Shown one piece after another: positions 2,836 through 51,725 of a stretch of 64,000 nucleotides of DNA. The notes under the pieces are model-generated. The model saw nothing but the letters and a program-made list of their open reading frames with translations. It was not told where the DNA came from and searched no databases. Numbering within the stretch: the stretch's first letter is position 1; each line of letters begins with the position of its first letter. The position numbers and the translations under genes are program-made. The DNA is from an uncultured virus (IMG/VR IMGVR_UViG_3300044490_000560) (lineage: Duplodnaviria; Heunggongvirae; Uroviricota; Caudoviricetes): the IMG/VR virus record IMGVR_UViG_3300044490_000560. One strand, written 5' to 3'.

Positions 2836-2843
2836 CCCATCCA

Positions 2844-26820: not shown

Positions 26821-26823
26821 TCG

Positions 26824-26853
26824 TTGCGTCGACCCGCCGCTTCGTGTTACTCT
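26824..26853 (+). promoter_or_regulatory. sigma70-type promoter of DNA polymerase operon
   Basis: TTGCGT-18-TACTCT with extended TGn; lies right after the terminator. Confidence 0.55.
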
Positions 26854-26878
26854 ACACGCGCAAGGAAAGGAAGGCTCG

Positions 26879-34165: not shown

Positions 34166-37100
34166 TGGCGTCCGCCTTTCGTCCAGTCAGCCGGAAGTGT
34201 CCGGCTGCTTCGGGGTTGTCTTTGAAGAACTTCAGGTCTTCGGGAGTCAGTTCCGCGGTCGGCACGATCCGATAGCCGAGGATTGTCTCGGGCACCTTGT
34301 CCGTCGCCAGCATGCCCGAGACGTCGCCGCCCAGGGCCGCCGACTGCTTCAGGCGCGGATCCGTCTTGCGGCCGTACGGGTTCTGGAACGCCTCGCGCAG
34401 CAGCTCCCGGGTCATATCCAGCGTCTTGCCGCGACGGTCGATGTTCTGCGACTTGTCGTTCGTGCGGATTGACGCCGCGAGGTTCTTGAAGATGACGTCC
34501 AAGCGGTACAAGGACCGGGCCACCTCCTCCAGTTCGCGCAGGTTACCAGTCCCTTCCGGGAACGCCGGCAGGGCGTTGTGGATGCGCCGATACAGCGGCG
34601 TGCGCGCCACGGACAGCGCGTCCTTCAACGCCTCTTGCGGGTTGTAGCCGTTGCGCCGGATCGCCTCCATCTCTTCGATCACCATGGCGCGCAGGTCGGT
34701 GAACGCCTGTTGCGGCGCATCGGCCTTGGAGCCGAGGGCGTACGGCCGCCCGCGCAGGAGCGCCATGTACGAGTCCGCGTTGGCCCACTCGGTGAACCGC
34801 TCGGCCATCTTCTTGATGGCGGCGGTCTTGGACATGCCCTTCGACGTCACGCCAACCGCGGACAGCAGGCCGGCCTCCGGCTTCTGGGCCACGCCCATGG
34901 CGGAGAACGGGGTGAACGCGCGAACCAGGTTCAGGGAGGCGGACTTCTCCGAGTCGATCGACAGCCACCGCTTCCAGAAGCTCACGTCCTTGAACGGCAT
35001 GTCCATGCCGGTGCCCGGGCTCTTGCCGAACACCCCTTCGATCATGCGCTGCGCGGGCATGGACATCTTGCCCAGGAACGTCGAGAACGGATCGGCGAAC
35101 CAGCCCGCGACTTCCCAGCCCTGCTTGCCGAGATTGAAGTAGTAGCGGCGCATCCGGGTCGTGGTGTTGGCCGGACCCTCCTGGCCGGTCAGGGCGGGGA
35201 TCAGATTCCCCACCGGCACCGCCAGCGGCCCTTGTCCGATCGCAGGCAAGGTCGTCTTTTTGACGTCGCCAAGGGTCTTCCCACCCCAACCGGCCATCGC
35301 GGCTGCCGCCGCGCCCGCGGCGGCATAGCCGGCGGCTCCAGGCAGCCCGCCCAGCATCGCGCCAGCCAAGCCCGCCCCGCCGACCGCGGTCGGCAGAGCC
35401 GGCGCCTTGGCCATCATGCGCAGCAGCGGCGTGATGTCCCAGGTCATGCGGGCCGCATCGCCCTTGCCGGCTTCGTTCTGCCACGCGAACCACTTGTCGT
35501 CGTCCGTCTTGACGCCTGCGGCCTTGGCCGCGGCGGTGGACATCATCTGCAGGAACACCGGCACGCCGAGCATCACGCCGCCGTACATTCGCACCCAGCG
35601 GCCGAAGAGGAACTTGCGGAACTCGGCGTTGTGAGTCTGGCCGAACAGCTTCTGGGTCAGCAGATTCCCGCCGCCGGCCTCCCATGCGCCTAGGGTCCAT
35701 TCCCACGAGAAGAGCAGCGTCTTCCAGGTCCGCTGCATCTTCGGGGTCATCCACGGATACATCGCCGGGTCGATGCCGCCGACTTCGCTGTTGATGTAGT
35801 GCGCCCAGCGCTTCATGTCGCGCACCGGGTCCCACCAGCGGCCGGCCTCGATCGCCTTCCGGCGAAGGATGTTGTTCATCTGCGTGAAGACGGCCAGCTT
35901 GGTCGCATTGATCACGTACTCGAAGGCGAGTTCCGAACTGTGCTCCAGCGCCCCTTCCAGCAGAGCCCGCGCGTTCCGAGCCGCCCGACTGCCCATGGTC
36001 GCCCGGACGTTGTCGACAACGCCCTTGATGTCACGCGCCAGGACGCGGCGGTCCGAATCGAGCATGTTGCGGGCACGGTCGTTGAACATCAGACCGGCCA
36101 GCATCGCTTGCGTCTTCATCTCCACCAGGCTCGGGTCGTCGGAGCCGATGGCCCGCAGGATCTCCCGCATCCCGGGCGCATTCGGATCCATGCCGCCGGC
36201 GCGGAAGATTTTGGCGAGGAACCCGTCGCCCTCCGAGGCGGAGCGCATGAACCGGGAACCGGACCGGCTGAACCCGAGGACCGTCGGCCAGAAGCCCGTG
36301 GCGGCCCACGGCGACTCGAACGCCGTGGCGATCGGGAAGAACAGCGATGCCATGACGGAAATGGACTTGGACCAGGACAGCGTGCTGTTCAGCCAGTGCA
36401 GTTGCGCGCCGGGGTTGCCGAAGTTGGGAATGGCCAGCGTCTGGCGCACGATGTTCGCGGCCTCGCCGCCGCCGAACACATCCATGACGGCCTTGGTGTC
36501 ATCACCAACAGGATTGGCAGCCGCGGCGATCTTCTCGAATGTCTCCATGCCGGGCGGAATGACGATCTTGTCCGTGAAGACGTAGCGGCGGACCCCGTGG
36601 GCGCTTTGCTGCTCGGACGTCGTGGTCAGCTTGCCGGGGACGATCAGGTCGTACAGGCGCGCCGCGTTCTCGCGGCCCGTCTGGCTTTCGTTGTACGTGA
36701 TGGTGTTGGCGGTCGGGTCGCCATGCACGCGCACCCAGCGCCGCGCGACCAGCTCCCACACGCGCTCCGGGACCGTGTCGTCATTCGGGTTGGCGCCCGG
36801 CTTCGCATAGACCAGCGGCCGGCCCGTCTCGTCGTTGGCGAACAGCAGCTGGTTGACGGCCTGACGGTAGCGAGTGGCGTTGGCAGTGTCCTGGGCATGC
36901 CGCGCCAGCAGTTCGTCCGCGCCCAGGTTCATCGGGAGCGCGCCCGTGATGTCGTAGATGGTCGAGTGCGTCACGCCGGCCGTCGCCTCAGCCTCGCCGC
37001 TCTGGGCGATCTGCTCGGCGATCGCGCGCGTGAGGGCGTGCAGGCCGGCATTCTCCATGGACAGGTTGTTTTCCGTCCCGCCCTGCCAGGCGGTCCGGTA

Positions 37101-40100
37101 CAGCTGGTTGACGCCCAGCCGGTACACCGCTTTCGCGACGTCCCAAGCCGTAGCGTCGGACGACAGGCCGAGGTCGGTCGCGCGGCCGTGCCGAATCGTT
37201 TCGGCGATTTCGAGTGCGGTCGCGTTCGCCTTGAACGGATTCGGCACGCCTTCCTGCGACGCGGCCAGGTCCGCCAGGAACTTGAACATGCCGACGAACC
37301 CGGGCTGCTGCGCGGCCTCACTGGCCGACAGGTCCCGCTTGTCCGTATACCCGATTACCGGTTGGATCTGCTGGCCCTCGGAGTCGACCTCCTCCGGCCC
37401 GTAGATCGGGCGGCGCTGGCGGGTCTTTTCCACCATGGGTCGCAGGCGCGCCATTTCATCGCTGACTGCCTGTGTGAATTCGGGTGGTTCCGGCTTGTGC
37501 AACTTCTGGGCCCAGTACTTCAGGGCACCGTAACCGGCGACAAACGGCGTGTAGGCCGACGAGCCGAACAGCCGTCCGTCCCCGTTGACCAACCAGCCCA
37601 TTGACCGGGCGTGCCGGGTGACGTTCTCCATCGCCGTGCGGATCTTGGTCGCGATGAACTGCATGTCGAGTTCGGTCGGATTGCGCCCGTTCTGCTCGAC
37701 AAGTTTGCGGTAGGCGGTGCTCGACTTGAACAACGCTTCTGACTCGCGGACCGGAATGGCCGGTCGCGGGTCGTACAGGGTGGGCGAGTCGTCGGACAGG
37801 GCGCCGCGGCGACGGCGTGTCACCGCCCAGCCGGTGCGTTCGAGTTCGCGAACCGCGGCCTGTTCCCGCGCCGCCACGTCGCCCATTTTGATATGCGGAT
37901 TCAGAACGGCAACCTTGATCGCCCCTTGCAGGGCCGCTTCGAATTTCCGGTACAGGCTCTCGTGCGGCAGTGCATTGCGCAGCGTCAAGAGGGTCTTGTG
38001 CACGGCCAGGAATTGATTTGCCCCCTGCTGTTTGTTGGCCGGCAGTTGACTGCGCCGGAGGGCTTCTTCCAACGATACGATCTTGGCGATGTTCGCGTCC
38101 AGCGTCTGAGGCGGCTGACCCGGCAGGAGCGAAACAGTCGGGTACAGGTCGTCCCACGGCAGCTGGCGCAGCTGGATCTCGCCCGCCGTCGCTGTGCGGC
38201 CGTTGTACCCGCCGTCACAAATGAAGGTCGAAACCACTGTCGAGAACCATTTGGCGATAATGAACTCTTCGTCGTTCAGCATGTGCGGCGATTCTTCGCC
38301 GCGATTGATGCGCACCAACTCCGCTCCGAGCGTCTGCCGATGGTTACGGGTCACCTTCTGGTCCGTCGGCCGGACGACCCAGGCGCCGTCCACCAGCGTG
38401 GCGCCCAGGCCGGACTGCACTTCCGCCCGAGTGATGTAGCCGTTTTCACCGCCGAGGCCCAGCAGTTGCGTTAACCAGTTCGACGCGGCGATCGCCGCCG
38501 GGATCGAACCCAAGGCCGTCTTGTCCAGCAGGAGCGATCGGATGTCCACGCCGTCGAAGTCGGGGAACACCGCCCCGGAGAACCAGACGTCGGGGTCCTG
38601 GAACGACACCAGGAACTCGTGCTCCGGGTCGACGCGGCCACGCTCCGGATTCAGCGCATGCACCTCGAGCAGATCGTGCTGCTCTTTCAGGGTGGGCGGT
38701 GTCGGCGGGACGTTCTTCGGCGGCGTCAAGGCCCGGTCGCGACCTTCCGCGACCGCGGCGATCGCCGGATCGCCCCGGAGTGCGGACAACGTCGCCCGAC
38801 CCAGCGAAGAAGCCGTCAACAGGGCCGTCTCCGCGGTCTGCACATAACTCAGCGCATCGGCGCGGCTGGTATCCGGCAGCGCCTCGGCGTCGGCGCGCAT
38901 TTTGGTCAGCTGTTTGGCAATCGTCACCTGTTGCGCGCTAAACCGGTTCATCAGGCGCGCGAAGGCCTCGTCCGGCATCCGCTGCGGATCGACCTGCACG
39001 AAGGTGCCGTCCGGCTGGACGACGGCGTCGATCAGCGCCTTGAGCGCCGACGCGACGGTTCCCAACCGGGGCGTTTGAACCAGCTGATCCCGCAGGCCGC
39101 TAAGAGCCGCGGCCAGTTCGGCCGCCGCGTCCATGCCGGCGCCAAGGAATACCCGGGCACGCAGCTTGGTGGCGTTCGAATTGTCCGCCCAGCCGGCGAA
39201 CTCCGGACGCGCCAGCGTGCTGTCCTGCCAGGCCGTGTACTCAGGCATCTCGGCGTGGATGGCGCGATCGAGATCCTGCGCCCGGCGCACCGCCGCGGCC
39301 TGTTGGTCGACCTGCGTCTCCGCCGTGGTGCGCGGGGGCGCCACGATGTCCTTGAAGGCCTGCCGCGTCGCAATGGCGGAGCGGGCCAGGTGGGCCGTGG
39401 CGCGAAACGCCTGGATGGCCGGGTCCGACGTATCGGACATGTCGGCCAGCATCCCGTAGGCCCGTTTCGTCCGCATGCTGATGCTCTTCATGGCCGTCCG
39501 GCGATCCGCCAGGCGGTCTCCCTGCAGGCTCGCGCGCAACACGGACCGGAGGGCCTCCTGTTGGGACTTCTCCAGCGGCGATTGGGCAATCATCAGGATC
39601 GTCTGCTGGACCTGACTGACGACCGTGCGCTCGAAGTCCGGCTCGTGCTGCCACAGCCAGCGGGTCTGTTCCGCCAGAGCCCCGGTCTTTGTGGCACGCA
39701 TCAGGCCGAGATACGCCAAGCGGCGATCCCGGTCCGACAGGGTTGTTCCACCCACCGGCCCGAGATTGTCCACCAGCGCCTGTTGCAGCGCGCTCTCGAA
39801 CGTGGGATTCTCCGCCAGCGAGGCGGTCATCTCCGGAGCACGCGGCCGCGCCGGGACGAAGCCGATCGCCGAGGCCTTCATCAGCTCGGCCCGGGCACGA
39901 TCCGCTGCCTTCTCCATGAGCGACTCGACCGGAATCCGATCCGCCGACGCGTCCGGTTCCGACAGGGACGCCGTGGCGCCGTCGGACAGGGGCCGCTCGA
40001 ACGCCTTGGCCAACCGCGTCGCCAAGCCCGCATTGACCTCCGGCACGAACTTGACTTCCGGACTAGCCGCCAACGCGTAGTGCAGTACCGACTCGTCCAT

Positions 40101-43100
40101 CACGCGACCCGGCGTCCCCGCGGCCGCCTTGGCTTCCTTGGCCGCCAGCGTGGGCGTGCGACCGTCCATCACGGTCCGGTAGAGCGCCGCGCCGGGGCCG
40201 GCCAGGGTTGACTGGATCTCCGTCATGGCGTTGGATTGGTTGGCGCGTCGCGCGGCTGCGATCGCCGCCAGCATCGTGCCGGTGATCACGGCCGGGTCCG
40301 GGTACCGCATGTTCTCGATGATGCGGGCGCCCGCTTCGAACGCGGTCCCGATCTCGCCGGTCGCCCAGTCCAGCTTCGCGATGGCGCGCAGCGCCTCCGC
40401 CGTCTCGGTCGCCGCGTTCGTCTCACGCACGCCGCGGTTATCCGCTTCGGCCTGCGGATCGGCCAGGTACGCCCGCAGCTTCGACTTGATCTTCGCGGCG
40501 TTCGCGGCGATCAGATCGAGGCCGGTGCGGGCGGCCGAATCCGCCGTCACGATCGGACGGGTCGGAGGCTCCAGTGCAGCCGCCGGCGCGGGGCGCTCGG
40601 TCAGCAGTTCTGCCAACGCACGGGCTTGCGACACGGGACTTGTGGCGAACTGGTCCGTCAAAACGCGTCCATTCGCCTGCGTCCGCAGATCCCGCTCCAA
40701 CGCCGGGTTCTCGTCCAAGAACCGGGCCCACAGGTCCTTGTACTCAGTGTACAACTGGTCGTAGGACTTGCCGTTAATGGCAGGTTTTCCTTTCCCCGCT
40801 TGCCAGTTATTGGACTGTGTCCGGTAGCCTTTAACATCCAGTTGATAAGCCTCTTCGATGGTCCGTCCGTCTTTCAAACGGGCAAACAACGCCGAAAACC
40901 GGCGATCGCCTTTGCTCGACACTTCGTACCCGTTCTGAGCGAAGCGCGCGTGTGTCCAGGCCGCGGGTTGGCTCGCTAGCGCCTCTGTTCTACGCAAGGC
41001 CTGTTCGTCGCCGTTCTCAAGGTACAGGCGTTCCGCTTCGGCCAGCGTCATCGTGTCGTAGCTGGGCTTCGGGACGTCCAGGACCGGCGGGGGCGCATCC
41101 TCTTTCAGCAGCGTGACGGGCACTGCCTCGCCGGTCGGCAGCCGCCCCTGGCGCTCCTTGACGTACCAGTCGCGCAGGGCCCCGGTCGTGTGCGTGCCCC
41201 AGGCCAGTGCGCCGTGATCGAGATTCAGCACGTCCGGCACTTCATAGTTTCGCGCCGTTCCGACCGTTGTCGACTGGGCGCCACGCGGCGGCGTGACCAC
41301 CGCCATGCGCGCCAAAGTGAGCTTCAAGGCCCGTCCGCCGATCGACCGGCCGTTCGGCTCGCCGTCAAACAGGTACTCGGCCTGCGGCCCATCCAGCGCC
41401 CGGGCCTGTGCGAAGTGCAGGTCCGCATTCGCGTCTGGCCCCATTGCGGCCATGAAGGACCGGGCGGACCGCGTCAGCTTCGGCGTCACCATCGTCACGA
41501 TGGAGCCGTACAGGCGTAGCAGGTAGTACATGTCCCGCGGGGTTACTGTCAGATTTCCGACTTTGACGTTCAACAGCTTGTTGTCGGGGTTCCACGTCCG
41601 CAGGGCCTCGAAGCCGCCGGCAAGGCGCGGCAGGGCGACGGTGGCGTCGTCCGCGGCCCGCAGCGCGATGAACGAACCGCCGTTCTGTGCGCACGGCGCC
41701 AGAAGGTTATCCAGAGCCGGGTTGATCACCGAATGCCCATTGGGACCGCGCAGCTTTCCGTCCCGGCGCGCTTGAGCGTACGCCTGGAACATGTCCGCAT
41801 AGATCCCTTCTACGCTTTGGATGAATGTTACGGTACGATCGGCATCCGCAACGCCCGTCAACAACGTCTCGACCATCTCCCCGATTTCGACGGGCGTCAG
41901 CCGCACGGCGGCGTCCGCCATGGCCGCCTTCTGCGCCCGCTGATCCATCGGGGTATCCGCGGCCTGCCGCTCCAGTTCGCCCTTCTTGATGTACCAATTC
42001 AGGACCGACTCGTCGTAATGGCCGCGGAAGGCCTGACGCGCCTGCCGCTCCCACCGGGCGCTCATGTGTATCCGCCGGTCCCAAAGGCCGTTCGGCTCGA
42101 ATCCACGATCCGCCGCCAGGCGCTTGCGAAACACCTCCGCAGATGTCACCCGTCGCAGGTACGACTCGAGCATAGCTGGGCCAGCGAAGTACTTGGCGCG
42201 CGGCTCGAACACGTCTGCGACCGCCCCGGCCCCGTGGCTAAACCCAAGAATCTCCACCAGGCCGTCAAACGTCCGCAGAGCCGCTTCCCTGGAGTCCCGG
42301 CCAGCCGCCTGCGCCAGCGAGCTTGCTTCGGCCACGGCCGCGGCGACGCTCGTCTGGACGGGGCCCGGCAACGCCTCCAGGGCCGTCATGCGCCGCGGGG
42401 ATCCCTGCAGCAGGGCCGCCATCATCCGCTCGGCCAGCTTCGAATCCTGGAACGTCGCCGGGTGTTGTGAGTCCTTGGCCTGCCAGGCTTGGTTCGCATA
42501 CGCCTGCATGACCTTCGTGTCCATCGCCGCCAGGTACGCCGCGTGGAACTTCTCGAACTGCTCCTGCGTCTTCGGCTTCGCCCGGTACAGCAGGGGGATG
42601 TACAGGTCCAGGTACGGATACCCGATCTTGTACAGGGCGCTCTCGCCGTTGCCCTTCAGGATGTCGAAGAGCATGTTGTTACCCGCGGCGGCAAACCGCA
42701 GGAATGCCCGCCACTCCTCGGGCTTATGCCCCTGCGTCAGATCGCCGTCGGGCAACGGGATCGGCGCGCCATCGTCCCCGAAGAACAGCGGCCGGCCAGC
42801 GTTCAGCGGCTTCTCCAGCCGCGCGCCCAGCAACGTGTGCATCACGGCGAGATTCGCCACCTGATCCACACCGGTACCACGATCGGTACTGCCAGTGATT
42901 CCTTCGTCCGACATGGCCGCCACTTGCCACGGGTCGCGGAAATCCGTGTCCGCGCGCCAACCCGAGCTTTTCTCCAGCGCGTCCGCTTCGGCCTTTTTGT
43001 CCTGCTTCCGCAGCGCCGCGACCGTCTTCTCCCGCACAGCCTGCACGAGTTGTCGCTTGTACTCCGGCGACATCGGGTCCGCGATTGTCGGAAAACCGCC

Positions 43101-46100
43101 GTCCGTCCCGTCTTTGTCGTACGCCACGCCCTGCTTCGGTTGTGGCCCTTCGACGCGCGTCGGGTCCATGTTACGCAGCCACGACACACGCGACTCCATG
43201 ATCGAGTTCTGCAGCAGCGCCATGTACATGTCGCGCTTCCACTCGGCGACGGCCTTGACACGCTGGGTGTACCGCGCCTCTGTCTCGTTGGCCCGCCGCT
43301 GCACGTCCGAAGACGTCATGTCCGCCAAGGCCTTCTCGAGATCCTCCAGGGACCACTGCCCGCGCATGATCCGCCCGAACGGGTCCATGCGAAACAGCGC
43401 CACCGCCGCCGTGTCACCGTCACGATCGTTGCCCGTCTGCCGCTCCATGCCCGGCACGTCGCGCACGATCGCCTCGTCTGCCGGCGCCAGCGCATCAATG
43501 GCAGGTGTGTCCAGCACCTGCAAGGTGCGCTCGCCCTTTTTCCCTCGCTGCGGTCGCGCCCACCGCTGCCGGCCACCGGCCGGCGCCGTGGTGGCGGGGC
43601 CGACGATACGAGCCAGGATCACGGCCGAGCCGCCGTCCCCGGACGGCGTCCGGGCCACGATCGCCAACCCGCCATGGAGCATCATTCCGCGCTTTGGCTT
43701 GCCCGGCCCGTCGAACTGCCCCCAGTCCAGCGCGTCCCAGTAGAACGATCCTTGCGCGTCGAACAGGTCGGAGAACGACAGCACCCGGCGGGCATCCATC
43801 GGCTTGCCGGACGGATCCAGGAACAGCGGCATGATGTCCTCGGCCAGCATCCGCAGATACTCGTCATGCGCCGCCGGGTCGCGCGCCAGCTTTTCGAGCA
43901 GCGTCAGCCGCTCCACCAGCATCTTCGCCGCGGCGTCGTCGGTCGCGCCCTTGAAGAACTGGTGCTGCAGGTTCACCCCCAGGGAGGTGCCACGGAACAT
44001 GGGGTGTGCGATGTTGGCCTGCAGCAAGGCCGGCAGGAACAAGAACCGCTTTCCGCCGTACGGCGTGGCCGTCTCGCCCTGGTCCACCCAGCGCGGAGGC
44101 CGCGTCAACGGATGATCCCCGCCGAACGGGTTGTCGACCAGCAGGTTTCCATCCGCGTCGTAAACAGGCTGTCCGTCCTGCAGCCGAACCTTCCCTTGTC
44201 CCTGATTGACCGCTTTGATGCCCCACACGAGCGGCATGGACGGCACGAGTTCGGACCCCAGGCTCTTGACCACTTGGGATTTGGCGGCTGGACCCTCTTC
44301 CGGAATGAGTCCACGGCGGACCAAGTCGCCCAGGATCGGATCCCGCTGGTCGTCGCCCAAGCCCTTGCGCGGCTTTGGGAACTTCGTGTCGAACGCCTCG
44401 TTCAGGCGCTCGGCCATCCAGTACAGCTCCGCCTGAGTGTACATGTCACCATCGCGCCGATGGTTCGCGTAGAAGTCGTGGTTCGACGGCACAGCGGAGT
44501 CATACAACGATGCGGCCTGCATGGCACGCACGTTGGTGTCATAGCTAATGATGATGGCGGGACGACCGCCTTCGCCGGTCTTGACATTACGCTCGATCGT
44601 CAGCCCCGGCAGGATCTTGCTCAGTGTCGTCTTTTTCCCGCGCCACGTCACCTCAGTTTCGGGCGTCACGTCCGGACTTCCTCGAATCCAGGCCGCCACG
44701 GTCTGGCCCTTCGCCTCGGCCAAGTCCCGCTTGTTGGCCAACGGGCCCTCCTTGGCGCCGTCCAGGTCGGACACGAGCGTCGAAGGCGACTGCTCTGTCA
44801 CGCGTGACAAAGCCAGACGCATCGCCCATTTATCAGCCGGCGTCCGGCTCGGGTCCGCCAGGGTCTGCTCGTCGGCCCGGATTGTGGTTCCTTTCCCCAT
44901 GAACCACTCGCCATCCATCGACAAGTAGTGCAGCTTCTCGATGTGCTGTTCACTGCGCCCCCGCAGTGTTCCAGTCAGCGTATGCGCCGTCCGCATGACG
45001 GCCCCGGCTCCATACAACGTGCCGTAGAAGGACGTGTCGCCCTCTTCTCCCGAATAGGTGTCGGGAATGACCACCAGCATCCGAAACCGTGTCGGCGCGG
45101 GAACGATCGGCCCCATGCCGTTGAACATCTGGCCCGAACGCTTCTGGTTGAACGGCAGGCGCCCGCGCTCGTCCACGCCCAGCAGCTCGGCGACGGTCCT
45201 GTACGTCTCCGCGTACGTGTCTCTCCCGGCCGTCAGGTGCGCCCGCGGGACCAGGATCGCCAAGGCGTGCTTCTTGTCCGCTTTGTGGAGCGGCAAGTAA
45301 GTGTAGGTAGACCCGGCATTATGCGCGGCGATCGCCGCACGAAGGACCGCGCGCTCCTGCGGCTCCGGCGACTCCACGCCCGCCGCATCCGTCATGCCGA
45401 CCGTGTTGGCGAAGATCGGCGTGCCGTCCGGCCAGACGGCGAACCGGCGCGCCTGCGCCAGCGCCTGCAGATAGCTGGCGTGCTCAGGGTGCGTCTGGGC
45501 CGACACCGCTTCGGCGGGGAAGAACGTCTGCACGCCGCGCGTCAGCCAATCCGACGCCAGAATGCGCGTCATGACCGGAGATTGGGTCGGCGCCACGACG
45601 TGCACCAGGCTGGCCGTCCGGCCAATCCCACGCACCTGCCCCATTGAGATCTTCGACGCGTACCGGTTCAATAGGCTCGGAAACGCCCCTTGGTTGGTCG
45701 CCTTGCCCGTGTGAATGTTGTCGGCGGTCAGTCGTGAAATCGCGTCCGCGGCGGAGATCTCCGGGAACTGGTATGCCAACGCCACGTCCCGAACCCACCG
45801 GGCCAACGCGCCGCCGTAGTTCTTGCCGCCGGTGAGCCACGATGCGAACCACATGTCCAACGACGACCCCGCCACCCCGCCGGCCTTTGACCGGTGCTCG
45901 GCCACCTCTCGCACCACGGCGGGATCCCGCAGGGCCGTCGCGAAGAAGTTGTCGACACCGAACAGCCGATCCGCCAGCTTGGCCACCTCTTCAAACCGCC
46001 GTGCCACTTCCACACGCCGGGCACTCAGGTCCAAAAGCGTCGGCATGGGCGTATTCATGTGACGGGTGATGACGGCCTCGGCGTCCTTGGCAATCTGCTG

Positions 46101-49100
46101 CAAAGTGGCCTTGGTCTGCGGCAAGCTCCGGTCGTGTGTGCGCGCTAGTCCCGTGGCGCCGGTGGACGGCGCGTCCAACGATCCGGACCGCCGGTGAACC
46201 CGCATGGAAGTCAGCTGCGACACAGCGTCCGCGTCGTCATCGTTTTCCCACGACGCTCCTGAGTCAGTCAGGTTTGCCCGCTTCGGCTGCGGCTCCCGGA
46301 ATGACACCCCCGCCACTTGCGTGGCACCACGCAACGTCGTCATTAGCCGCAACGAGCCTTCATACCCCAGGGTGTGTAGAAGCAAATAGAAGGCGCGGTA
46401 CTGTTGACTCGAGCCGTCGGCTCCTTCATGCCCCGCCCCCTTCTGCCGGCGGTCCCCCGTCTCGCCCTCCCGCGGCTCGACCAGCCCGTGCGCCAACAGG
46501 CGCGGACGCAGCCAAAGGTTGTACGACTCTTCATTGCGCAACAGCGCGTGGGTCCGCAGGTCTGTGTCCACGCCGCTCAACAGACCCGCGATGCTGTCCG
46601 GCAGAGCCCGCCCCATCACCAGCGACGGCCGGTACAGCAGCTCGAGCATCTTTGTTGCCTCGCCCATGGATCCAGGGGCGAAGAGTCGCATCAGGTTCAC
46701 CACGGCGCGCTTGGTCGAGTTGCGGCCGAACATGTCACGGGCGGCGTTGTCGCCCCACGTCGCGATTCCCTGCTCGGCGTCTGCGACAGCGGCGTCCGCA
46801 TCGTCGTTAAACGTCTGATAAGCCTGCAGCGATGCACGCCGCTCGTCCGCCTGGACGTACGCCAGCCGCATCTTGTCGATGTCCGTCGCCGGCATCGACG
46901 GCTCCAACCGGCGGTAAAACTCGAACGATGCGCGCAGTCCATCCGTACCGTAGTCGCTGGCACGCACCCCGAAGTTGAACCCCGGCGACCGCATGGCAAG
47001 CTCGGCGAACTTGACCATCAGTCCCACCTGATCCGGGTCATGCAACGCCTCCGCCACCGATGCGGATTTTCCTGCCGTAGGAGGCGTTGACTCCGCCGCC
47101 GCGACCGTTGCGGCCGAGGCGGTCGTGGCAGTCGATGCGGTCGCTGCGGCCGATGCGGCGGAAGTGGCGGATGCGGCAGCAGTGGAGGCGTCGCCGGCCG
47201 AAAGCGTTTCGGCCGCGGCGCGCTCTTTCACGACTTCCGCCGCGCCCTTGATCTCGAGCTTGCCCCTCTGCACCTCTGCAATCCCTCGCGCCAACGCCCG
47301 CCGATCCTCCGGCAAGTACGACGTGCGGGTGGCTCCGCCTGCGTACAAGGCGCGCAGTTCCGTTTCAATCACCTGCGTCGCCTGTTCCGGTGTCATGCTC
47401 TTGAGGGAGCTGATTGCGTCCGCCGGAATGGCGCTATTCGGCCCCAGAAATTCCGCGACTTCTTGGCTGGTGGGAAGCACGCGCAGCCGCGCCTGGTCCC
47501 GCTGCCCGGCCGGCGCCAACGCCGTGAGCGTTGCCGCCAGGACGCTATCCGCGTCCCGCAGCGATCCTGCCCCGAGCAGTTGATTGACCAAACTGTTAAA
47601 CGTCAGAAACGCTTCGCGCACCGCCGTGCCGTCGTCCGCCCGCCCGCGAACTTCATCGGCGATCAGGCCCAGGGTCGCGTAGTACTTGCTGCCACCGAAC
47701 CCGAGCGTCTGCGCCAGTGCCTCGTCCGCGCGGTAGAACACAAACCCGGCGATCGCATGACTGATCGCCTCCAGGTTGTATGCGTCCGGGTTGAAAATGT
47801 ACTCCGCCAGATAAGCGGCTTCGCGCAGAGTCGTGTCCGACACCCGGTTGGCGTTCTCGGACAACCGCTTCAACGCATCATGGATGTTCTTGATGAACTC
47901 ACGCGCCGCGGGGCGATACTTCTCCGCCAGACGCGGATCGCGGAACAGTCCTGCGATCACTTCACCCGCAACGCCCAGGCGATCCAGGCGCCGAACGGCG
48001 CTCTCGATCGCATCTTCGATCACGGCCGTCGTGTTGCCCACGTGCTTGAACGGAATGTACACATCGCCGCCAAAAGACACGGCGCCAGGCGTGACCAGGT
48101 ATCCATACTGCCCGCGGTCCCCGGGATTCTGCGCGATGTGACGCGCGGCACCCGACTCCTCCAGGGCCTGCCGGGCCAGCAACTCCGCCCCGAGCGGCCG
48201 GTCCTTCACCCCGCCCTCGGCTGTCGGATCGTTGAACAGCGCCACCCACGCCTTCTGGGCCGCCTGCGCCTCTTCCGGCGTGGCGAAAGCATCCGCGCGC
48301 CGGCCGCTCTCGTCCCACTTTTTCGCCAGCGCGAACTGCTCGTCCATCAATCGCCGGGCCTCCACGAGCGTCAGGCCGTCCGGCCCTGCCCGACCCACAC
48401 GCGCGTACGGCAGGTTCGCCAATGCCCGCGTCTTCTCCGTCTTGAGCATGTACGGACGAATCCACGGCACGGCAGCCAGCTGCAGCGCAGACGTCCCGTA
48501 CACGGCGTTCGTCGGCGTGAAGAAGATCCGTCCCTCGCGAGCGGTCAACCCGAGCGTCGTGGCTTGCGCCTGCGCCTCGGCGCGCGACTGGACGCTCCGC
48601 GCCCCCGGGGCGATTTCCCCCGTTTCGGGGTCGGCGAGAAGGAACGCCCCATCCGAACCGGTCACTTCATAGACCCGCGTCCCGTCCGCCGTTTCGTAAA
48701 CCGGTCGCAGCAGACGCTCGTTCAACGCCAGCAAGGTGCGGGCAAAATCGCTCACATAATTCCCGGCCCGCCGGATGTCGTGTTCCGTAAAGAGCGTCAG
48801 GTTCGAAACGCTCTCGCGCAGCAACTGCCGCTGCGCCGCATCGGACTCCACCGACCCGTCGTTTCGCGCCGCGGCTTCCAACAGCGCCCGGTCCATGCCC
48901 CGGCCAGAATAAGCGGTATGAAACGCACCGAAGTCACCGATCGTCGACACGTCCGTATACGTCACAACTCCACGGGAGGCCAGGAACTGCTCAAGCGCGT
49001 CAGTCACTTGCGACAGTGTGGTCTTCTCCGGAGCCGAGTAGACTGTACCCACGCGATCGCCGATGATGTCGAACTTCAACCGGCCCGACGCAGCCTGCAG

Positions 49101-51725
49101 CAACTCCGTCTCGAACTCTTTCTGAAACTCTTCCGGCGTTCGCCCCGCGATCTTCCCCTGCGCGTCTCGGGGCAGCCTCTTCAAGAATTCCCGGACCTCG
49201 CCCTCCGAAGCGACGAAAGCGCCGCGCTGCCGCAAGTAGACGTGCAGCATATCCGTCAACTGCTTCGTGAACTCCGGCGTGATCGCCGCCTCGATGCTGG
49301 GATCCACCAAGGTCGGCCGGTCCGGCTCCCTCCCGGGCGCGTCATGCACACCCTGCGCCCGCGCAGCCGAGCGCCGGCCCATCTCCGCCCGGTACAGATG
49401 CTTGTGCCACATCGAGGCTACAGTCAGTAGCGCCCGGCCGTCATTCCCCAGTCGCTCGTGCAGAATGGCCCGCATCGGATCACGGAACGCCGTCATCGGA
49501 TCGCCCGTAACCGCGGCGTTCACGAGCCCGATCACCCACCCCGCGGCCCGCTGACCAACGGTCCGCTCATCCTCAATGATTCGCTTGTACTCCGGGAAGA
49601 AGTCCCGGAACGTCTCGGCGAGCTGCTGGACGTCGGTCAGGTACTGCGCCCGACCCACCTTCGTCCGACTACCGGCGTAAAGCCGCTCGGCGATGTTATC
49701 CTTGGACCCCGTCGTGGCGACATCAACGATCGTCGGCGCCTCGGCGTCCCGGTAGTACTGCAAGCCCTTGATCGACGCCAGGTCATTCAGCCGGTCGGCG
49801 AATTCCCGCGCCCGTCCGAACGCGCTGGCATTCAGGCCGGAGTAGGCCTTCAACATCCCGGCGCGCAACACCGCGGGAACGGCGAACGACACGATCTCGG
49901 CGAACCCCTGCGACGTCGTCGGGATGGCCGCGTGCAGTCCGGCGGCCAGCCGCTCACGCACCGACTGCGGCTCTTCCCCGGTCAGCCCCATGATGCCCTG
50001 GATGAACCCGCCGTACCGGGCGCCACCGAACATTCCGAGCACCTCACCGTACCCCATCGACTCGAACAGCTTCTGGATCGACGTCGGCGTCACTCCGCCT
50101 TCGGTCATTTTCGACGCCAGCCAGTAACCCCAGATCGACTTCTGCTGGAACTGCAGCTTCTCCCGCAACAACCGTTGCGTCACTTCCGGATCGGCCAGGG
50201 CCTCCGGGACGGACAGGGTCTTCCCGGCGGCATTCTTGATGCCCCCCGGCGCCTTCGCGGCGTCCAGAACGGCGCGCTTCTGCTGATCCCGGACCGCCGC
50301 GCGCAACTGGTCGTCGGTCCCGTACACCGCGTCGATCAGCTCCCGCACGTACGTGCCCTGCTGCACGGCGTCCGGACGGGCGCGCAGCCCCTTGGCCACG
50401 GCGCGATTGCCGATCTGCTTCGCCGTGTCGGACACGATCCCGCCGAGAGCGTTGAACGCCCGCGCGCTCGTCATGGCCAGGTAGCTGGCCCAGGCCGAGC
50501 CGAACGCGTACATCTTGGCCGCCCGGTCCGTCTCTTCGTCACCCGACACCGCAAACCCCAGCTCCGACCGCGTCACCGTCTCGTCCGCGCCGGCCAGCGC
50601 GCCGATGATCGGGTGCGCCACGCCGTAATCGAACCCTGCGTACAGCCCCGCCCGGATCGGCCCCTCGATCAGCGCGATGCCGGCGGCTTCCCGCACCTTG
50701 GCACGAACGGTCGGAGGCAGGCCGTGAACCACTTCGTCCATGTGGTTCCGCAAGCCGGCCCTCGAGTACTCGGCCAGGAACCGGCCCGTCGCCCGCAGGA
50801 TCGACGGGTTGTTGTAGATCGCCAGAGCTTTCTCGGCGGCTGAGACGGCGCGCACCTTCAGCGCCGCCCGCGCCGTGGCGTCCAGTGTGGCACCGGCCAT
50901 GCGCGCCTCGCCATACTGCATCGCCTCTTTCACGATGTTGTCCAGCCCCACGTCCTCGGCCGTGACCATCGTCTTGCCGGTCTTGGCCGCCAGGGCCTTC
51001 GCGGTCATTCGCACACCGTACGCCGCGCTCTTCTCCACGATCGTTTCGGTCGTCTCCTTCACGGCCATCGTCGCGAGCTTCGACGCGCCTTTGAAGATCG
51101 CACCGGACGTGAAGAACTCGAACGCGAACGCCGGGCCCGCCCGCAGCATCGACCCGACGTTGCCCAGGAACGTCTGCTGCGCTTCCCGGTCCGAGTGCTC
51201 CAGAAAGAGCTTCGTCAGCACCAGGTCCTGCAATGACAGGCCCTCCGGGCCCTTGTCCCGCAACGTCGCCAACGCGTTTCGCGTGCGCGCCATGTTCTTG
51301 ATCGAAATGCCGACGGCCGCCACGTCCGACGCATACGGCACGAAATCCCAACCCGATCCAGAAACCATCGCCTCCCAAAAGCCCCGCCGACCCGTGCGCC
51401 GGGCGGCCATCAGCTTCGCCAGTTCCTCGCCGCCCTCCACCTGCGAGAATTGCGCGTACGGGACCACCTTGCCCCAGAAGTTCAGCTCTTCGACATGGTC
51501 CGACCCCCACGTCTGCCCCAGCACCTTGCCGGCCTGCGGCGTCAGATCGCCGAAAGTGTCCCGGTCAGTCTGGTCAACCGAGTCGTACCGGAACAGCGGC
51601 ACGTACTTTTCCTGGGTCGGCACGGCGGGCTTGGTCTGCGGTACCGGCGGATCCACCAGCGCCGGAAGGGACACGGGCGGTAGTGTCGTCTGCGGGCTGC
51701 CTGCGGTCAACGGTTGAGTAGCCAT
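34155..51725 (-). CDS. giant internal virion protein (5856 aa): putative two-barrel virion RNA polymerase + NADAR-like domain
   Basis: Uninterrupted 17.6-kb ORF; GGGAG RBS; RTP (aa ~2692) and GNDRDGD (D2767-D2771); NADAR-like block aa ~3600-3708; position among ejection proteins. Confidence 0.8.
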   Translation of the reverse strand: MATQPLTAGSPQTTLPPVSLPALVDPPVPQTKPAVPTQEKYVPLFRYDSVDQTDRDTFGDLTPQAGKVLGQTWGSDHVEELNFWGKVVPYAQFSQVEGGEELAKLMAARRTGRRGFWEAMVSGSGWDFVPYASDVAAVGISIKNMARTRNALATLRDKGPEGLSLQDLVLTKLFLEHSDREAQQTFLGNVGSMLRAGPAFAFEFFTSGAIFKGASKLATMAVKETTETIVEKSAAYGVRMTAKALAAKTGKTMVTAEDVGLDNIVKEAMQYGEARMAGATLDATARAALKVRAVSAAEKALAIYNNPSILRATGRFLAEYSRAGLRNHMDEVVHGLPPTVRAKVREAAGIALIEGPIRAGLYAGFDYGVAHPIIGALAGADETVTRSELGFAVSGDEETDRAAKMYAFGSAWASYLAMTSARAFNALGGIVSDTAKQIGNRAVAKGLRARPDAVQQGTYVRELIDAVYGTDDQLRAAVRDQQKRAVLDAAKAPGGIKNAAGKTLSVPEALADPEVTQRLLREKLQFQQKSIWGYWLASKMTEGGVTPTSIQKLFESMGYGEVLGMFGGARYGGFIQGIMGLTGEEPQSVRERLAAGLHAAIPTTSQGFAEIVSFAVPAVLRAGMLKAYSGLNASAFGRAREFADRLNDLASIKGLQYYRDAEAPTIVDVATTGSKDNIAERLYAGSRTKVGRAQYLTDVQQLAETFRDFFPEYKRIIEDERTVGQRAAGWVIGLVNAAVTGDPMTAFRDPMRAILHERLGNDGRALLTVASMWHKHLYRAEMGRRSAARAQGVHDAPGREPDRPTLVDPSIEAAITPEFTKQLTDMLHVYLRQRGAFVASEGEVREFLKRLPRDAQGKIAGRTPEEFQKEFETELLQAASGRLKFDIIGDRVGTVYSAPEKTTLSQVTDALEQFLASRGVVTYTDVSTIGDFGAFHTAYSGRGMDRALLEAAARNDGSVESDAAQRQLLRESVSNLTLFTEHDIRRAGNYVSDFARTLLALNERLLRPVYETADGTRVYEVTGSDGAFLLADPETGEIAPGARSVQSRAEAQAQATTLGLTAREGRIFFTPTNAVYGTSALQLAAVPWIRPYMLKTEKTRALANLPYARVGRAGPDGLTLVEARRLMDEQFALAKKWDESGRRADAFATPEEAQAAQKAWVALFNDPTAEGGVKDRPLGAELLARQALEESGAARHIAQNPGDRGQYGYLVTPGAVSFGGDVYIPFKHVGNTTAVIEDAIESAVRRLDRLGVAGEVIAGLFRDPRLAEKYRPAAREFIKNIHDALKRLSENANRVSDTTLREAAYLAEYIFNPDAYNLEAISHAIAGFVFYRADEALAQTLGFGGSKYYATLGLIADEVRGRADDGTAVREAFLTFNSLVNQLLGAGSLRDADSVLAATLTALAPAGQRDQARLRVLPTSQEVAEFLGPNSAIPADAISSLKSMTPEQATQVIETELRALYAGGATRTSYLPEDRRALARGIAEVQRGKLEIKGAAEVVKERAAAETLSAGDASTAAASATSAASAAATASTATTASAATVAAAESTPPTAGKSASVAEALHDPDQVGLMVKFAELAMRSPGFNFGVRASDYGTDGLRASFEFYRRLEPSMPATDIDKMRLAYVQADERRASLQAYQTFNDDADAAVADAEQGIATWGDNAARDMFGRNSTKRAVVNLMRLFAPGSMGEATKMLELLYRPSLVMGRALPDSIAGLLSGVDTDLRTHALLRNEESYNLWLRPRLLAHGLVEPREGETGDRRQKGAGHEGADGSSQQYRAFYLLLHTLGYEGSLRLMTTLRGATQVAGVSFREPQPKRANLTDSGASWENDDDADAVSQLTSMRVHRRSGSLDAPSTGATGLARTHDRSLPQTKATLQQIAKDAEAVITRHMNTPMPTLLDLSARRVEVARRFEEVAKLADRLFGVDNFFATALRDPAVVREVAEHRSKAGGVAGSSLDMWFASWLTGGKNYGGALARWVRDVALAYQFPEISAADAISRLTADNIHTGKATNQGAFPSLLNRYASKISMGQVRGIGRTASLVHVVAPTQSPVMTRILASDWLTRGVQTFFPAEAVSAQTHPEHASYLQALAQARRFAVWPDGTPIFANTVGMTDAAGVESPEPQERAVLRAAIAAHNAGSTYTYLPLHKADKKHALAILVPRAHLTAGRDTYAETYRTVAELLGVDERGRLPFNQKRSGQMFNGMGPIVPAPTRFRMLVVIPDTYSGEEGDTSFYGTLYGAGAVMRTAHTLTGTLRGRSEQHIEKLHYLSMDGEWFMGKGTTIRADEQTLADPSRTPADKWAMRLALSRVTEQSPSTLVSDLDGAKEGPLANKRDLAEAKGQTVAAWIRGSPDVTPETEVTWRGKKTTLSKILPGLTIERNVKTGEGGRPAIIISYDTNVRAMQAASLYDSAVPSNHDFYANHRRDGDMYTQAELYWMAERLNEAFDTKFPKPRKGLGDDQRDPILGDLVRRGLIPEEGPAAKSQVVKSLGSELVPSMPLVWGIKAVNQGQGKVRLQDGQPVYDADGNLLVDNPFGGDHPLTRPPRWVDQGETATPYGGKRFLFLPALLQANIAHPMFRGTSLGVNLQHQFFKGATDDAAAKMLVERLTLLEKLARDPAAHDEYLRMLAEDIMPLFLDPSGKPMDARRVLSFSDLFDAQGSFYWDALDWGQFDGPGKPKRGMMLHGGLAIVARTPSGDGGSAVILARIVGPATTAPAGGRQRWARPQRGKKGERTLQVLDTPAIDALAPADEAIVRDVPGMERQTGNDRDGDTAAVALFRMDPFGRIMRGQWSLEDLEKALADMTSSDVQRRANETEARYTQRVKAVAEWKRDMYMALLQNSIMESRVSWLRNMDPTRVEGPQPKQGVAYDKDGTDGGFPTIADPMSPEYKRQLVQAVREKTVAALRKQDKKAEADALEKSSGWRADTDFRDPWQVAAMSDEGITGSTDRGTGVDQVANLAVMHTLLGARLEKPLNAGRPLFFGDDGAPIPLPDGDLTQGHKPEEWRAFLRFAAAGNNMLFDILKGNGESALYKIGYPYLDLYIPLLYRAKPKTQEQFEKFHAAYLAAMDTKVMQAYANQAWQAKDSQHPATFQDSKLAERMMAALLQGSPRRMTALEALPGPVQTSVAAAVAEASSLAQAAGRDSREAALRTFDGLVEILGFSHGAGAVADVFEPRAKYFAGPAMLESYLRRVTSAEVFRKRLAADRGFEPNGLWDRRIHMSARWERQARQAFRGHYDESVLNWYIKKGELERQAADTPMDQRAQKAAMADAAVRLTPVEIGEMVETLLTGVADADRTVTFIQSVEGIYADMFQAYAQARRDGKLRGPNGHSVINPALDNLLAPCAQNGGSFIALRAADDATVALPRLAGGFEALRTWNPDNKLLNVKVGNLTVTPRDMYYLLRLYGSIVTMVTPKLTRSARSFMAAMGPDANADLHFAQARALDGPQAEYLFDGEPNGRSIGGRALKLTLARMAVVTPPRGAQSTTVGTARNYEVPDVLNLDHGALAWGTHTTGALRDWYVKERQGRLPTGEAVPVTLLKEDAPPPVLDVPKPSYDTMTLAEAERLYLENGDEQALRRTEALASQPAAWTHARFAQNGYEVSSKGDRRFSALFARLKDGRTIEEAYQLDVKGYRTQSNNWQAGKGKPAINGKSYDQLYTEYKDLWARFLDENPALERDLRTQANGRVLTDQFATSPVSQARALAELLTERPAPAAALEPPTRPIVTADSAARTGLDLIAANAAKIKSKLRAYLADPQAEADNRGVRETNAATETAEALRAIAKLDWATGEIGTAFEAGARIIENMRYPDPAVITGTMLAAIAAARRANQSNAMTEIQSTLAGPGAALYRTVMDGRTPTLAAKEAKAAAGTPGRVMDESVLHYALAASPEVKFVPEVNAGLATRLAKAFERPLSDGATASLSEPDASADRIPVESLMEKAADRARAELMKASAIGFVPARPRAPEMTASLAENPTFESALQQALVDNLGPVGGTTLSDRDRRLAYLGLMRATKTGALAEQTRWLWQHEPDFERTVVSQVQQTILMIAQSPLEKSQQEALRSVLRASLQGDRLADRRTAMKSISMRTKRAYGMLADMSDTSDPAIQAFRATAHLARSAIATRQAFKDIVAPPRTTAETQVDQQAAAVRRAQDLDRAIHAEMPEYTAWQDSTLARPEFAGWADNSNATKLRARVFLGAGMDAAAELAAALSGLRDQLVQTPRLGTVASALKALIDAVVQPDGTFVQVDPQRMPDEAFARLMNRFSAQQVTIAKQLTKMRADAEALPDTSRADALSYVQTAETALLTASSLGRATLSALRGDPAIAAVAEGRDRALTPPKNVPPTPPTLKEQHDLLEVHALNPERGRVDPEHEFLVSFQDPDVWFSGAVFPDFDGVDIRSLLLDKTALGSIPAAIAASNWLTQLLGLGGENGYITRAEVQSGLGATLVDGAWVVRPTDQKVTRNHRQTLGAELVRINRGEESPHMLNDEEFIIAKWFSTVVSTFICDGGYNGRTATAGEIQLRQLPWDDLYPTVSLLPGQPPQTLDANIAKIVSLEEALRRSQLPANKQQGANQFLAVHKTLLTLRNALPHESLYRKFEAALQGAIKVAVLNPHIKMGDVAAREQAAVRELERTGWAVTRRRRGALSDDSPTLYDPRPAIPVRESEALFKSSTAYRKLVEQNGRNPTELDMQFIATKIRTAMENVTRHARSMGWLVNGDGRLFGSSAYTPFVAGYGALKYWAQKLHKPEPPEFTQAVSDEMARLRPMVEKTRQRRPIYGPEEVDSEGQQIQPVIGYTDKRDLSASEAAQQPGFVGMFKFLADLAASQEGVPNPFKANATALEIAETIRHGRATDLGLSSDATAWDVAKAVYRLGVNQLYRTAWQGGTENNLSMENAGLHALTRAIAEQIAQSGEAEATAGVTHSTIYDITGALPMNLGADELLARHAQDTANATRYRQAVNQLLFANDETGRPLVYAKPGANPNDDTVPERVWELVARRWVRVHGDPTANTITYNESQTGRENAARLYDLIVPGKLTTTSEQQSAHGVRRYVFTDKIVIPPGMETFEKIAAAANPVGDDTKAVMDVFGGGEAANIVRQTLAIPNFGNPGAQLHWLNSTLSWSKSISVMASLFFPIATAFESPWAATGFWPTVLGFSRSGSRFMRSASEGDGFLAKIFRAGGMDPNAPGMREILRAIGSDDPSLVEMKTQAMLAGLMFNDRARNMLDSDRRVLARDIKGVVDNVRATMGSRAARNARALLEGALEHSSELAFEYVINATKLAVFTQMNNILRRKAIEAGRWWDPVRDMKRWAHYINSEVGGIDPAMYPWMTPKMQRTWKTLLFSWEWTLGAWEAGGGNLLTQKLFGQTHNAEFRKFLFGRWVRMYGGVMLGVPVFLQMMSTAAAKAAGVKTDDDKWFAWQNEAGKGDAARMTWDITPLLRMMAKAPALPTAVGGAGLAGAMLGGLPGAAGYAAAGAAAAAMAGWGGKTLGDVKKTTLPAIGQGPLAVPVGNLIPALTGQEGPANTTTRMRRYYFNLGKQGWEVAGWFADPFSTFLGKMSMPAQRMIEGVFGKSPGTGMDMPFKDVSFWKRWLSIDSEKSASLNLVRAFTPFSAMGVAQKPEAGLLSAVGVTSKGMSKTAAIKKMAERFTEWANADSYMALLRGRPYALGSKADAPQQAFTDLRAMVIEEMEAIRRNGYNPQEALKDALSVARTPLYRRIHNALPAFPEGTGNLRELEEVARSLYRLDVIFKNLAASIRTNDKSQNIDRRGKTLDMTRELLREAFQNPYGRKTDPRLKQSAALGGDVSGMLATDKVPETILGYRIVPTAELTPEDLKFFKDNPEAAGHFRLTGRKADANAR

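Follow-up and report, generated by a model that had tools for sequence, protein, structure and literature searches.

Does the middle of a giant phage protein contain an RNA polymerase? The question is raised by a 64,000-nucleotide stretch of DNA from an uncultured virus of the Caudoviricetes (IMG/VR record IMGVR_UViG_3300044490_000560), which is referred to here as the window. Its minus strand carries an open reading frame (ORF) at 34155-51725 that, according to the ORF listing and translation, starts with ATG and runs without an internal stop to give a protein of 5,856 amino acids (aa), P0001. We regard this giant gene as real because two collinear homologues of 5,574 and 5,584 aa come from independent assemblies. 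A first-pass annotation, made from the letters alone, had proposed that P0001 includes a single-chain two-barrel RNA polymerase that is packaged in the virion and injected. Our analysis indicates that aa ~2160-3060 are probably a DNA-dependent RNA polymerase of the single-chain two-barrel (beta/beta-prime-like) type known from crAss-like phages, highly diverged and set in a cysteine-poor, presumably virion-borne protein. The case is built on hallmark residues that do not vary within the family and on motif matches, collinear and equally spaced, to gp66, the polymerase of Cellulophaga phage phi14:2, and not on a significant homology score or a fold. The features it draws on are listed below; A5 and ext6 are alignments of six family members, DPBB stands for double-psi beta-barrel and HMM for profile hidden Markov model.

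34155-51725, minus strand: giant gene P0001 (5,856 aa, 2 cysteines), collinear with the 5,574-aa and 5,584-aa homologues.
42546-45248, minus strand: candidate RNA polymerase core, aa ~2160-3060, inside which all conserved polymerase-like motifs lie (A5, ext6 and block-chain tests).
44721-44963, minus strand: candidate DPBB-B segment, aa 2255-2335, a weak assignment (A5 and resemblance by eye, which the block scan did not reproduce).
43371-43838, minus strand: candidate DPBB-A segment, aa 2630-2785, the best-conserved stretch of the core with 17 of 32 invariant columns (A5).
43644-43652, minus strand: RxP motif R2692-T-P2694, with R and P invariant in six of six sequences (A5; block 2683-2697 has its best offset on gp66 1313-1327).
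43413-43433, minus strand: candidate Mg2+-binding loop G2765-N-D2767-R-D2769-G-D2771, with G and all three D invariant in six of six (A5, block scan and HMM).
42831-42896, minus strand: candidate bridge-helix motif, aa 2944-2965, with R2949 and V2953 invariant (A5 and spacing; the expected position is second-best in the block scan).
42636-42698, minus strand: candidate trigger-loop motif NxxFDxxK, aa 3010-3030, with N3017, D3021 and K3024 invariant in six of six (ext6 and block scan).

A script run on the translation found every motif quoted in the first-pass annotation, in the N-to-C order given there: HIEKLHY at aa 2261-2267 (giving K2264), FMGKG at aa 2275-2279 (K2278), SDLDGAKEG at aa 2319-2327, IVARTP at aa 2689-2694 (R2692 at nt 43650-43652) and QTGNDRDGDT at aa 2763-2772, with DRDGD occupying aa 2767-2771 (nt 43413-43427). 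DxDGD occurs in the giant protein only as this DRDGD, and DxDxD twice, the other copy being DDDAD at aa 1829. By a hand calculation from the composition (D 0.059, G 0.081), about 0.1 DxDGD would be expected by chance in 5,856 aa; the lone occurrence is just mildly unusual, and the motif alone proves little.

Conservation adds considerably more. The family is very rare, with five relatives that are all giant proteins or fragments of such. Searching aa 2101-3000 with phmmer against 1.84 billion cluster representatives returned P0003 (5,584 aa), P0002 (5,574 aa) and P0004 (823 aa), while a word-indexed search recovered P0002 alone. A contig search with the conserved C-terminus gave the more distant P0005 (locus L007, 4,111 aa, N-terminus cut off), and the genome behind another match gave P0006, a 3,111-aa fragment on contig C61 of genome G001. 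P0001, P0002 and P0003 are full-length and collinear from end to end; conservation is highest over their C-terminal 1,000 aa, at 40-61% identity in windows of 200 aa, compared with about 30% in the polymerase-like region. In the alignment of all six sequences (A5, 900 columns, 18-33% identity to P0001) only 32 columns (3.6%) are invariant, 17 of them within aa 2635-2784. The invariant set includes H2266, G2272, K2278, D2322, R2692, P2694, G2765, D2767, D2769, D2771, R2949 and V2953. Five of the six catalytic-type residues named beforehand (K2278, R2692, D2767, D2769 and D2771) are thus fixed, as is P2694, and the sixth, K2264, is kept in five of six sequences, as is K2325. This is a fair and strong sign that the named residues are functional, because they were chosen from one sequence alone and yet prove invariant against a 3.6% background.

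The loop itself reads DRDGD, DHDGD, DNDGD, DEDWD, DNDGD and DLDGD in the six sequences, so that the D-x-D-G/W-D frame is preserved in all five relatives, as the first-pass proposal would have it. All three aspartates of the DxDxD loop of the two-barrel superfamily are present and fixed, the fourth residue is glycine in five of six, and the second is free (R, H, N, E, N, L). An R-x-P upstream of the loop, a further superfamily hallmark, is present at the level of sequence. The extended alignment ext6 adds the invariant motif N3017-x-x-[FY]-D3021-x-x-K3024.

How does this pattern compare with known two-barrel enzymes? Our comparison set consisted of gp66 (KC821624 45265-51807, locus tag Phi14:2_gp077, with DFDID at residue 1361), nine further crAss-like polymerase segments, gp96 of phage P23-45, and E. 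coli rpoB and rpoC. In a block-chain test, the blocks were the ungapped windows of the family that an automatic selection found most conserved; each received a score against a profile built from the ten crAss-like sequences, and the blocks were then linked in sequence order. Eight blocks of 15 columns gave a chain score of 26.1 against a null of -10.1 +/- 5.0, and none of 300 column shuffles scored as high; under two other settings, z was 6.2 and 6.4. Without the block holding the aspartate loop (the D-loop block), still none of 1000 column shuffles reached the chain score. When the order of target segments was permuted with the segments kept intact, 6 and 7 of 1000 permutations reached the score with the loop block included.

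Five of the eight blocks found their best of 704 offsets on gp66 in collinear order (2171 on 986, 2350 on 1122, 2683 on 1313, 2764 on 1358 and 3010 on 1601). In block 2683-2697, which lands on gp66 1313-1327, R2692 falls on R1322; the loop block lands on TGSDFDIDK at 1358 and thereby places the loop on DFDID. The bridge helix of gp66 is described as residues 1529-1559 and its trigger loop as 1598-1636 (bioRxiv 10.1101/2020.03.07.982082), and the best of 704 offsets for the NxxFDxxK block is gp66 1601-1615, within that trigger loop. Distances downstream of the loop agree closely: D2767 and D3021 are 254 aa apart and D1361 and D1612 of gp66 251 aa, and the bridge motif, G2952-V, follows D2767 by 185 aa, exactly as G1546-V follows D1361 in gp66. 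Within the latter motif, GVDQVANLAVMH (2952-2963) and gp66 GVGITANMLVDH (1546-1557) match at six positions; in the profile scan of the bridge block, the expected gp66 position ranks second-best only. Furthermore, invariant residues of the family coincide with invariant positions of the crAss-like enzymes, namely K of xKx, K of xKVG, R and P of YRxPT, the three D, and D and K of VDxxKD. With gp66 as its only target, a family HMM returned E = 0.0023 and aligned the loop to DFDID, a value that, like the one for gp96 below, holds only as a pre-planned single comparison.

In its overall layout gp66 resembles the window protein: it is a single chain with RxP, GxDxDxD, bridge-helix-like and trigger-loop-like motifs in that order and at near-identical post-loop distances, and its gene keeps company with late genes of the virion type, the replication genes being on the other strand. 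There are differences as well. The two proteins are without significant sequence similarity by HMMER or hhalign. The window loop has the glycine of cellular enzymes and a second residue that is not aromatic, whereas gp66 and its kin carry DFDID or DFDVD; among the ten crAss-like loops, eight are DFD[IV]D, one DYDID and one DLDVD, a pattern to which neither DRDGD nor the loops of its relatives conform. Some 367 aa separate K2325 from R2692, compared with 257 aa between K1065 and R1322 of gp66, and the spacing from R to D is 75 aa instead of 39 aa. Unlike gp66, the 5,856-aa window protein has about 2,150 aa before and about 2,800 aa after the core. The window phage is high-GC (60-68% across the window), and its minus-strand genes lack PHROG matches of known function, unlike those of phi14:2.

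The first-pass annotation had read the whole series of motifs as the two barrels of a polymerase. Its second half, RxP followed by DxDxD, is kept in the family and collinear with gp66; the assignment of K2264, K2278 and SDLDGAKEG to DPBB-B was not reproduced by the unbiased block scan. By eye, the candidate DPBB-B segment recalls PLK1012G and LDGVK1065VG of gp66, LKGTVI of gp96 and GNKGVI of E. coli beta, and on this by-eye resemblance the assignment rests, which makes it the weakest part of the proposal.

Several results weigh against a polymerase and are gathered here. No match to the polymerase-like region came from Pfam, PHROGs or NCBIfam at E up to 10, PDB sequences yielded chance matches only in phmmer and profile searches, and hhalign against gp66 or the crAss profile yielded E 0.13-0.24 at a probability below 1%. 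The reverse search of the giant proteins with a crAss HMM was non-significant and on P0003 matched elsewhere, and in a six-frame decoy set of 443 pieces gp66, gp96, rpoB and rpoC all fell outside the top 12 of the family HMM. For the RxP-to-loop segment, most Smith-Waterman scores did not rise above those of shuffles: of 18 pairs, the best was P0003 with rpoC 429-469 (1 of 200 shuffles as good), four others lay at the expected place with 12 to 27 of 200 shuffles, and the remaining 13 were no better than shuffles or misplaced. In the block-chain test, one short acidic block contributes 17.7 of the 26.1 score, and without the D-loop block segment-order permutation becomes marginal (27 to 49 of 1000). 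The pairings made by eye, K2278 with K1012, K2325 with K1065 and SFSDLF with PGQIF, are not top-ranked in the block scans, and the loop lacks the aromatic residue that the canonical DFDGD has in second place. Structure prediction gave low confidence throughout, with a mean pLDDT (predicted local distance difference test) of 37.7 for aa 2101-3000 from four sequences and of 45.3 for aa 2225-2830 (606 aa) from six, the loop region staying below 30 (both AlphaFold2). Homology to crAss-like polymerases was not detectable by tblastn, PHROGs, hhalign or the crAss HMM. In none of its modes (local, greedy, global or sub-region) did hhalign become significant; its top matches were the D-loop, the RxP and the trigger motif, correctly ordered.

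Nothing usable came from Foldseek and VIA-align with the low-confidence models, the best Foldseek E against the PDB being 0.23. Around the motifs the models do show beta-strands (IVAR, AVILARIV, IVR and AVALF), and they put a helix between K2278 and D2322, at a position where gp66 and QDE-1 are described to have an extended helix (bioRxiv 10.1101/2022.12.01.518664). As signs of a polymerase fold, these predicted elements carry little weight, and nothing is drawn from the structure results for or against the fold. Two sub-threshold Pfam matches were taken as chance: PepSY (E 0.02, below cut-off) and RNA_pol_Rpb1_7 at aa 4027-4091 (window 38226-42125, minus strand; E 0.046, 14.2 bits against a cut-off of 23), far from the core.

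If the region is not a polymerase, what else could produce these motifs? The GxDxDGD loop and RxP might belong to another metal-dependent enzyme or a structural cation site, and the giant protein might be a 'polyvalent' ejection protein devoid of polymerase activity that resembles polymerases in short motifs only. The formal homology tests, all non-significant, the empty structure tests and the dominance of one acidic block would fit this explanation. So would the company the region keeps, since the giant protein also carries an unrelated domain known in stand-alone form (phrog_9995), and a language-model search with its C-terminal module found viral clusters as nearest neighbours, with LPD38, a 'large polyvalent protein' domain, in 33% of one cluster (score 0.94); we treat this link as a lead only. 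However, four blocks besides the acidic one are best placed collinearly on the crAss polymerase, two of them on the published trigger loop and RxP, spacing to gp66 holds within 0-3 residues, and the column shuffles fail to reach the score even when the acidic block is left out. No alternative family was matched in Pfam, PHROGs or NCBIfam, and the loop is not an EF-hand, its position 12 being F. We therefore consider this explanation unlikely, although it deserves to be taken seriously. A reading of DRDGD as haloacid dehalogenase (HAD) motif I was likewise discarded, as no hydrophobic run precedes the loop.

With the polymerase reading preferred, its parts can be assigned provisional roles. D2767, D2769 and D2771 would hold the catalytic Mg2+, and R2692-x-P2694 would sit in the same barrel, DPBB-A. 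RGxGV near residue 2950 would form the bridge helix and NxxFDxxK near 3020 the trigger loop, while K2278 and K2325 are candidates for the lysines of the second barrel that contact nucleoside triphosphates or RNA. The polymerase may be a single module within a giant, cysteine-poor virion protein expressed from the late, minus-strand arm. This protein would be packaged and would enter the cell together with the DNA, whereupon the enzyme would start host-independent transcription of the plus-strand arm.

Is such a delivery plausible from the genomic setting? The layout of the window suggests a section of a phage genome whose two arms converge. On the plus strand, the arm at ~1-33 kb encodes a family A DNA polymerase (26657-28942), a helicase, a PD-(D/E)XK exonuclease, a C5 cytosine methyltransferase and an ankyrin-repeat protein; a D5-type primase-helicase at 12167-14854 lies inside this arm yet is encoded on the minus strand. 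In the minus-strand arm (33-64 kb) the giant gene is accompanied by eight or nine ORFs, and for these neighbours neither a Pfam match nor one to a functionally named PHROG appeared at E up to 1. With 2 cysteines in 5,856 aa the giant protein is cysteine-poor, and the nine other minus-strand ORFs (window 33278-64000) contain 11 in 3,996 aa, six of them having none, whereas the twelve proteins of the plus-strand replication arm (window 1-33000) contain 100 in 5,152 aa, or 1.1-4.4% each. The phage polymerases embedded in giant proteins that are described in the cited papers are all virion enzymes (bioRxiv 10.1101/2020.03.07.982082; 10.1101/2022.12.01.518664; PMC7886860), and the neighbours of the polymerase gene in phi14:2 are reported as virion proteins by proteomics (bioRxiv 10.1101/2020.03.07.982082). 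We infer packaging in the virion because the enzymes of this type so described are virion proteins, because the gene sits beside large unannotated ORFs in the other arm than the replication genes, as in phi14:2, and because the giant protein and its minus-strand neighbours are poor in cysteine compared with the replication proteins. What the sequences show directly are the motifs with their invariance, order and spacing, and the composition and place of the gene; fold, enzymatic activity, ejection and the set of genes transcribed are putative.

As further context in favour of the polymerase reading, no other polymerase family for transcription was matched among the scanned ORFs. The first-pass remark that no T7-type polymerase is visible agrees with our scans, as neither the 25 ORFs nor the four pieces of the giant protein matched a T7/N4-type single-subunit RNA polymerase family in Pfam, PHROGs or NCBIfam. 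A look for direct repeats in the plus-strand arm as possible early promoters gave nothing convincing.

A further explanation accepts the homology and questions the role: the region could be a genuine two-barrel enzyme that is not an injected early transcriptase, for example a non-virion domain that proteases cut free, a primase-like enzyme or a polymerase that copies RNA, or a relic without activity that is kept for structure. QDE-1-type enzymes are described to accept both DNA and RNA templates (PMC9508822), P23-45 is reported to hold a virion as well as a non-virion two-barrel enzyme within one phage (bioRxiv 10.1101/2022.12.01.518664), and the second loop residue of the window protein is not aromatic, all of which would be compatible with this. 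Because the three Asp, the R and the P are invariant across very divergent homologues, the sequences argue for retained catalysis, though, and the gene belongs to the cysteine-poor minus-strand module, outside the replication genes; together with the virion nature of the characterised phage polymerases in giant proteins, this renders such a non-injected homologue rather improbable. That the motifs are a chance coincidence without specific function in a very long protein, in which short motifs are easily over-read and ~0.1 DxDGD are expected anyway, is close to refuted by the six-of-six invariance of the named residues and the clustering of invariant columns in aa 2635-2784.

Where would a polymerase of this kind stand among the known ones? 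One close known system is gp96 of Thermus phage P23-45 (EU100883), described as a two-barrel polymerase fused into a virion tape measure protein of 5,002 aa (bioRxiv 10.1101/2022.12.01.518664). Like the window protein, gp96 has a glycine in its loop, DFDGD, and places the polymerase within a giant protein. By eye, its FRNPVMGHGGALLQARV and TGVDFDGDT resemble ARTPSGDGGSAVILARI and TGNDRDGDT of the window protein, and LKGTVI resembles GKGTTI. The family HMM against gp96 residues 1-1200 alone gave E = 0.011 with the loop aligned to DFDGD, again valid only as a pre-planned single comparison, and in the wider search the similarity was at noise level. The gp96 polymerase lies at the N-terminus of the tape measure, whereas the candidate core is in the middle of its protein (aa ~2160-3060 of 5,856), and Pfam and PHROGs matched no tape-measure family in the latter.

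E. coli beta-prime shows NRAPTLH and, 33 residues on, NADFDGD, where the window protein has RTPS followed by GNDRDGD; E. coli beta has GNKGVI, where GKGTTI precedes RTPS in the window protein. One homologue of the window protein carries DLDGD, which we take to be the loop form of eukaryotic RNA-dependent RNA polymerases (RdRP). The core differs from cellular beta/beta-prime and from QDE-1 in that it matches no Pfam model, is a single chain, resides in a phage and contains far larger insertions. Language-model neighbours of the 900-aa region were viral clusters, the nearest named family being PF05183 RdRP (score 0.86), which is a lead only; hmmscan of four alignment members at E up to 10 did not list PF05183, the QDE-1 type. 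The N4 virion RNA polymerase of the Schitoviridae, described as giant, cysteine-poor, ejected and the starter of early transcription (PMC13434306), has the same role as proposed here but a T7-like single-subunit fold, a family that went unmatched in the window scans.

The giant size called unusual in the first-pass annotation is so in a relative sense. Giant fusions around a two-barrel enzyme are already on record in crAss-like phages: three coding sequences holding the polymerase segment (L009, L016 and L017) measure 13,656, 12,297 and 13,260 nt (4,551, 4,098 and 4,419 aa), so that the polymerase-holding proteins span 4,098-4,551 aa, beside the 5,002 aa of the P23-45 fusion. Such fusions are filed under names that include 'hypothetical protein', 'structural protein' and 'DUF1768 domain-containing protein'.

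Should the polymerase reading hold, a virion two-barrel polymerase within a giant protein would as such be known, and the novelty would lie in the glycine-containing loop, the longer connector, the largest host protein so far and an otherwise unannotated phage lineage. We regard it as an evenly balanced question whether the family represents a third, independent lineage of virion-delivered single-chain two-barrel polymerases outside the Crassvirales and the P23-45 group, which would combine a crAss/QDE-1-like post-loop architecture with a cellular-type DxDGD loop (DLDGD in one member) and the largest such polyprotein so far, in a high-GC lineage with an unannotatable virion module. Phage-injected two-barrel polymerases are described from very few lineages, and their fast divergence means that structure or biochemistry is needed for each new one (PMC7886860; bioRxiv 10.1101/2022.12.01.518664). 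A high-GC, non-crAss lineage with a cellular-type glycine loop and the post-loop spacing of gp66 would help to order the evolution of single-chain forms, and could give a new calibration point for the kinship of two-barrel enzymes, perhaps including the polymerases of eukaryotic RNA interference. The six-sequence motif set KG, DGxK, RxPS, TGxDxDGD, RGxGV and NxxFDxxK offers a handle for finding genes missed by Pfam, PHROGs and NCBIfam.

What surrounds the core within the giant protein is described by three further features:

40596-40955, minus strand: embedded phrog_9995 domain, aa 3591-3710 (PHROG match).
34158-37328, minus strand: best-conserved module of the giant protein, aa ~4800-5856, 40-61% identical to the two full-length homologues.
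47043-47228, minus strand: Ala/Ser/Thr-rich low-complexity linker, aa 1500-1561, which may mark a domain boundary.

The phrog_9995 match (E 1.7e-45, function not named) is the sole accepted match to Pfam, PHROGs or NCBIfam on the whole giant protein. Elsewhere this domain type occurs as small stand-alone proteins, 38-58% identical by tblastn, in phiKZ-like jumbo phages (e.g. PHIKZ082.1), Achromobacter phage phiAxp-3 and Rhizobium phages, whose hosts are all Proteobacteria; these relatives of the domain hint at a proteobacterial host for the window phage too. A second low-complexity stretch is Gly/Ala-rich (aa 5445-5479), and both stretches could be linkers or polyprotein cleavage regions. Across the whole giant protein, no strongly hydrophobic 19-aa window (Kyte-Doolittle >=1.6) was found.

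Attempts to enlarge the family met with limited success. A search with the C-terminal alignment found five metagenome loci, of which L007 alone reaches the core, and one short genome contig; in the viral contig collection it found no relatives. The core alignment gave none among viral, metagenome and genome contigs, a search of 5.8 billion clusters added no further relatives, tblastn with aa 1900-3200 matched none of 50,697 phage records, and an A5 profile search of five phage records brought up no candidates at first look. P0004 was considered as a stand-alone 823-aa enzyme and rejected: it is labelled partial and lies on a 3,048-nt contig, making it a fragment. It is filed under a Bacilli metagenome-assembled genome, and one metagenome-assembled genome (G001) has two contigs, L019 (C61) and L008, with pieces of a homologous giant gene; in these cases phage contigs seem to have ended up in bacterial bins. 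Kinship with Stenotrophomonas phage StenR_269 was dropped, as the tblastn search matched no phage record; a 2270-aa cysteine-free protein of that phage was guessed to be a virion polymerase in the StenR_269 paper, where the missing cysteine was taken as a hint.

Three further genes of the replication arm, all on the plus strand, were observed in passing. A PAPS-reductase-like protein (phrog_424) is encoded at 9367-10296 and the C5 cytosine DNA methyltransferase (PF00145) at 17980-19479. The ankyrin-repeat protein (325 aa, 1858-2835, Pfam Ank E 2e-30) also matches positions 3240-3379 of the 4,700-position profile phrog_9049, part of another giant phage protein.

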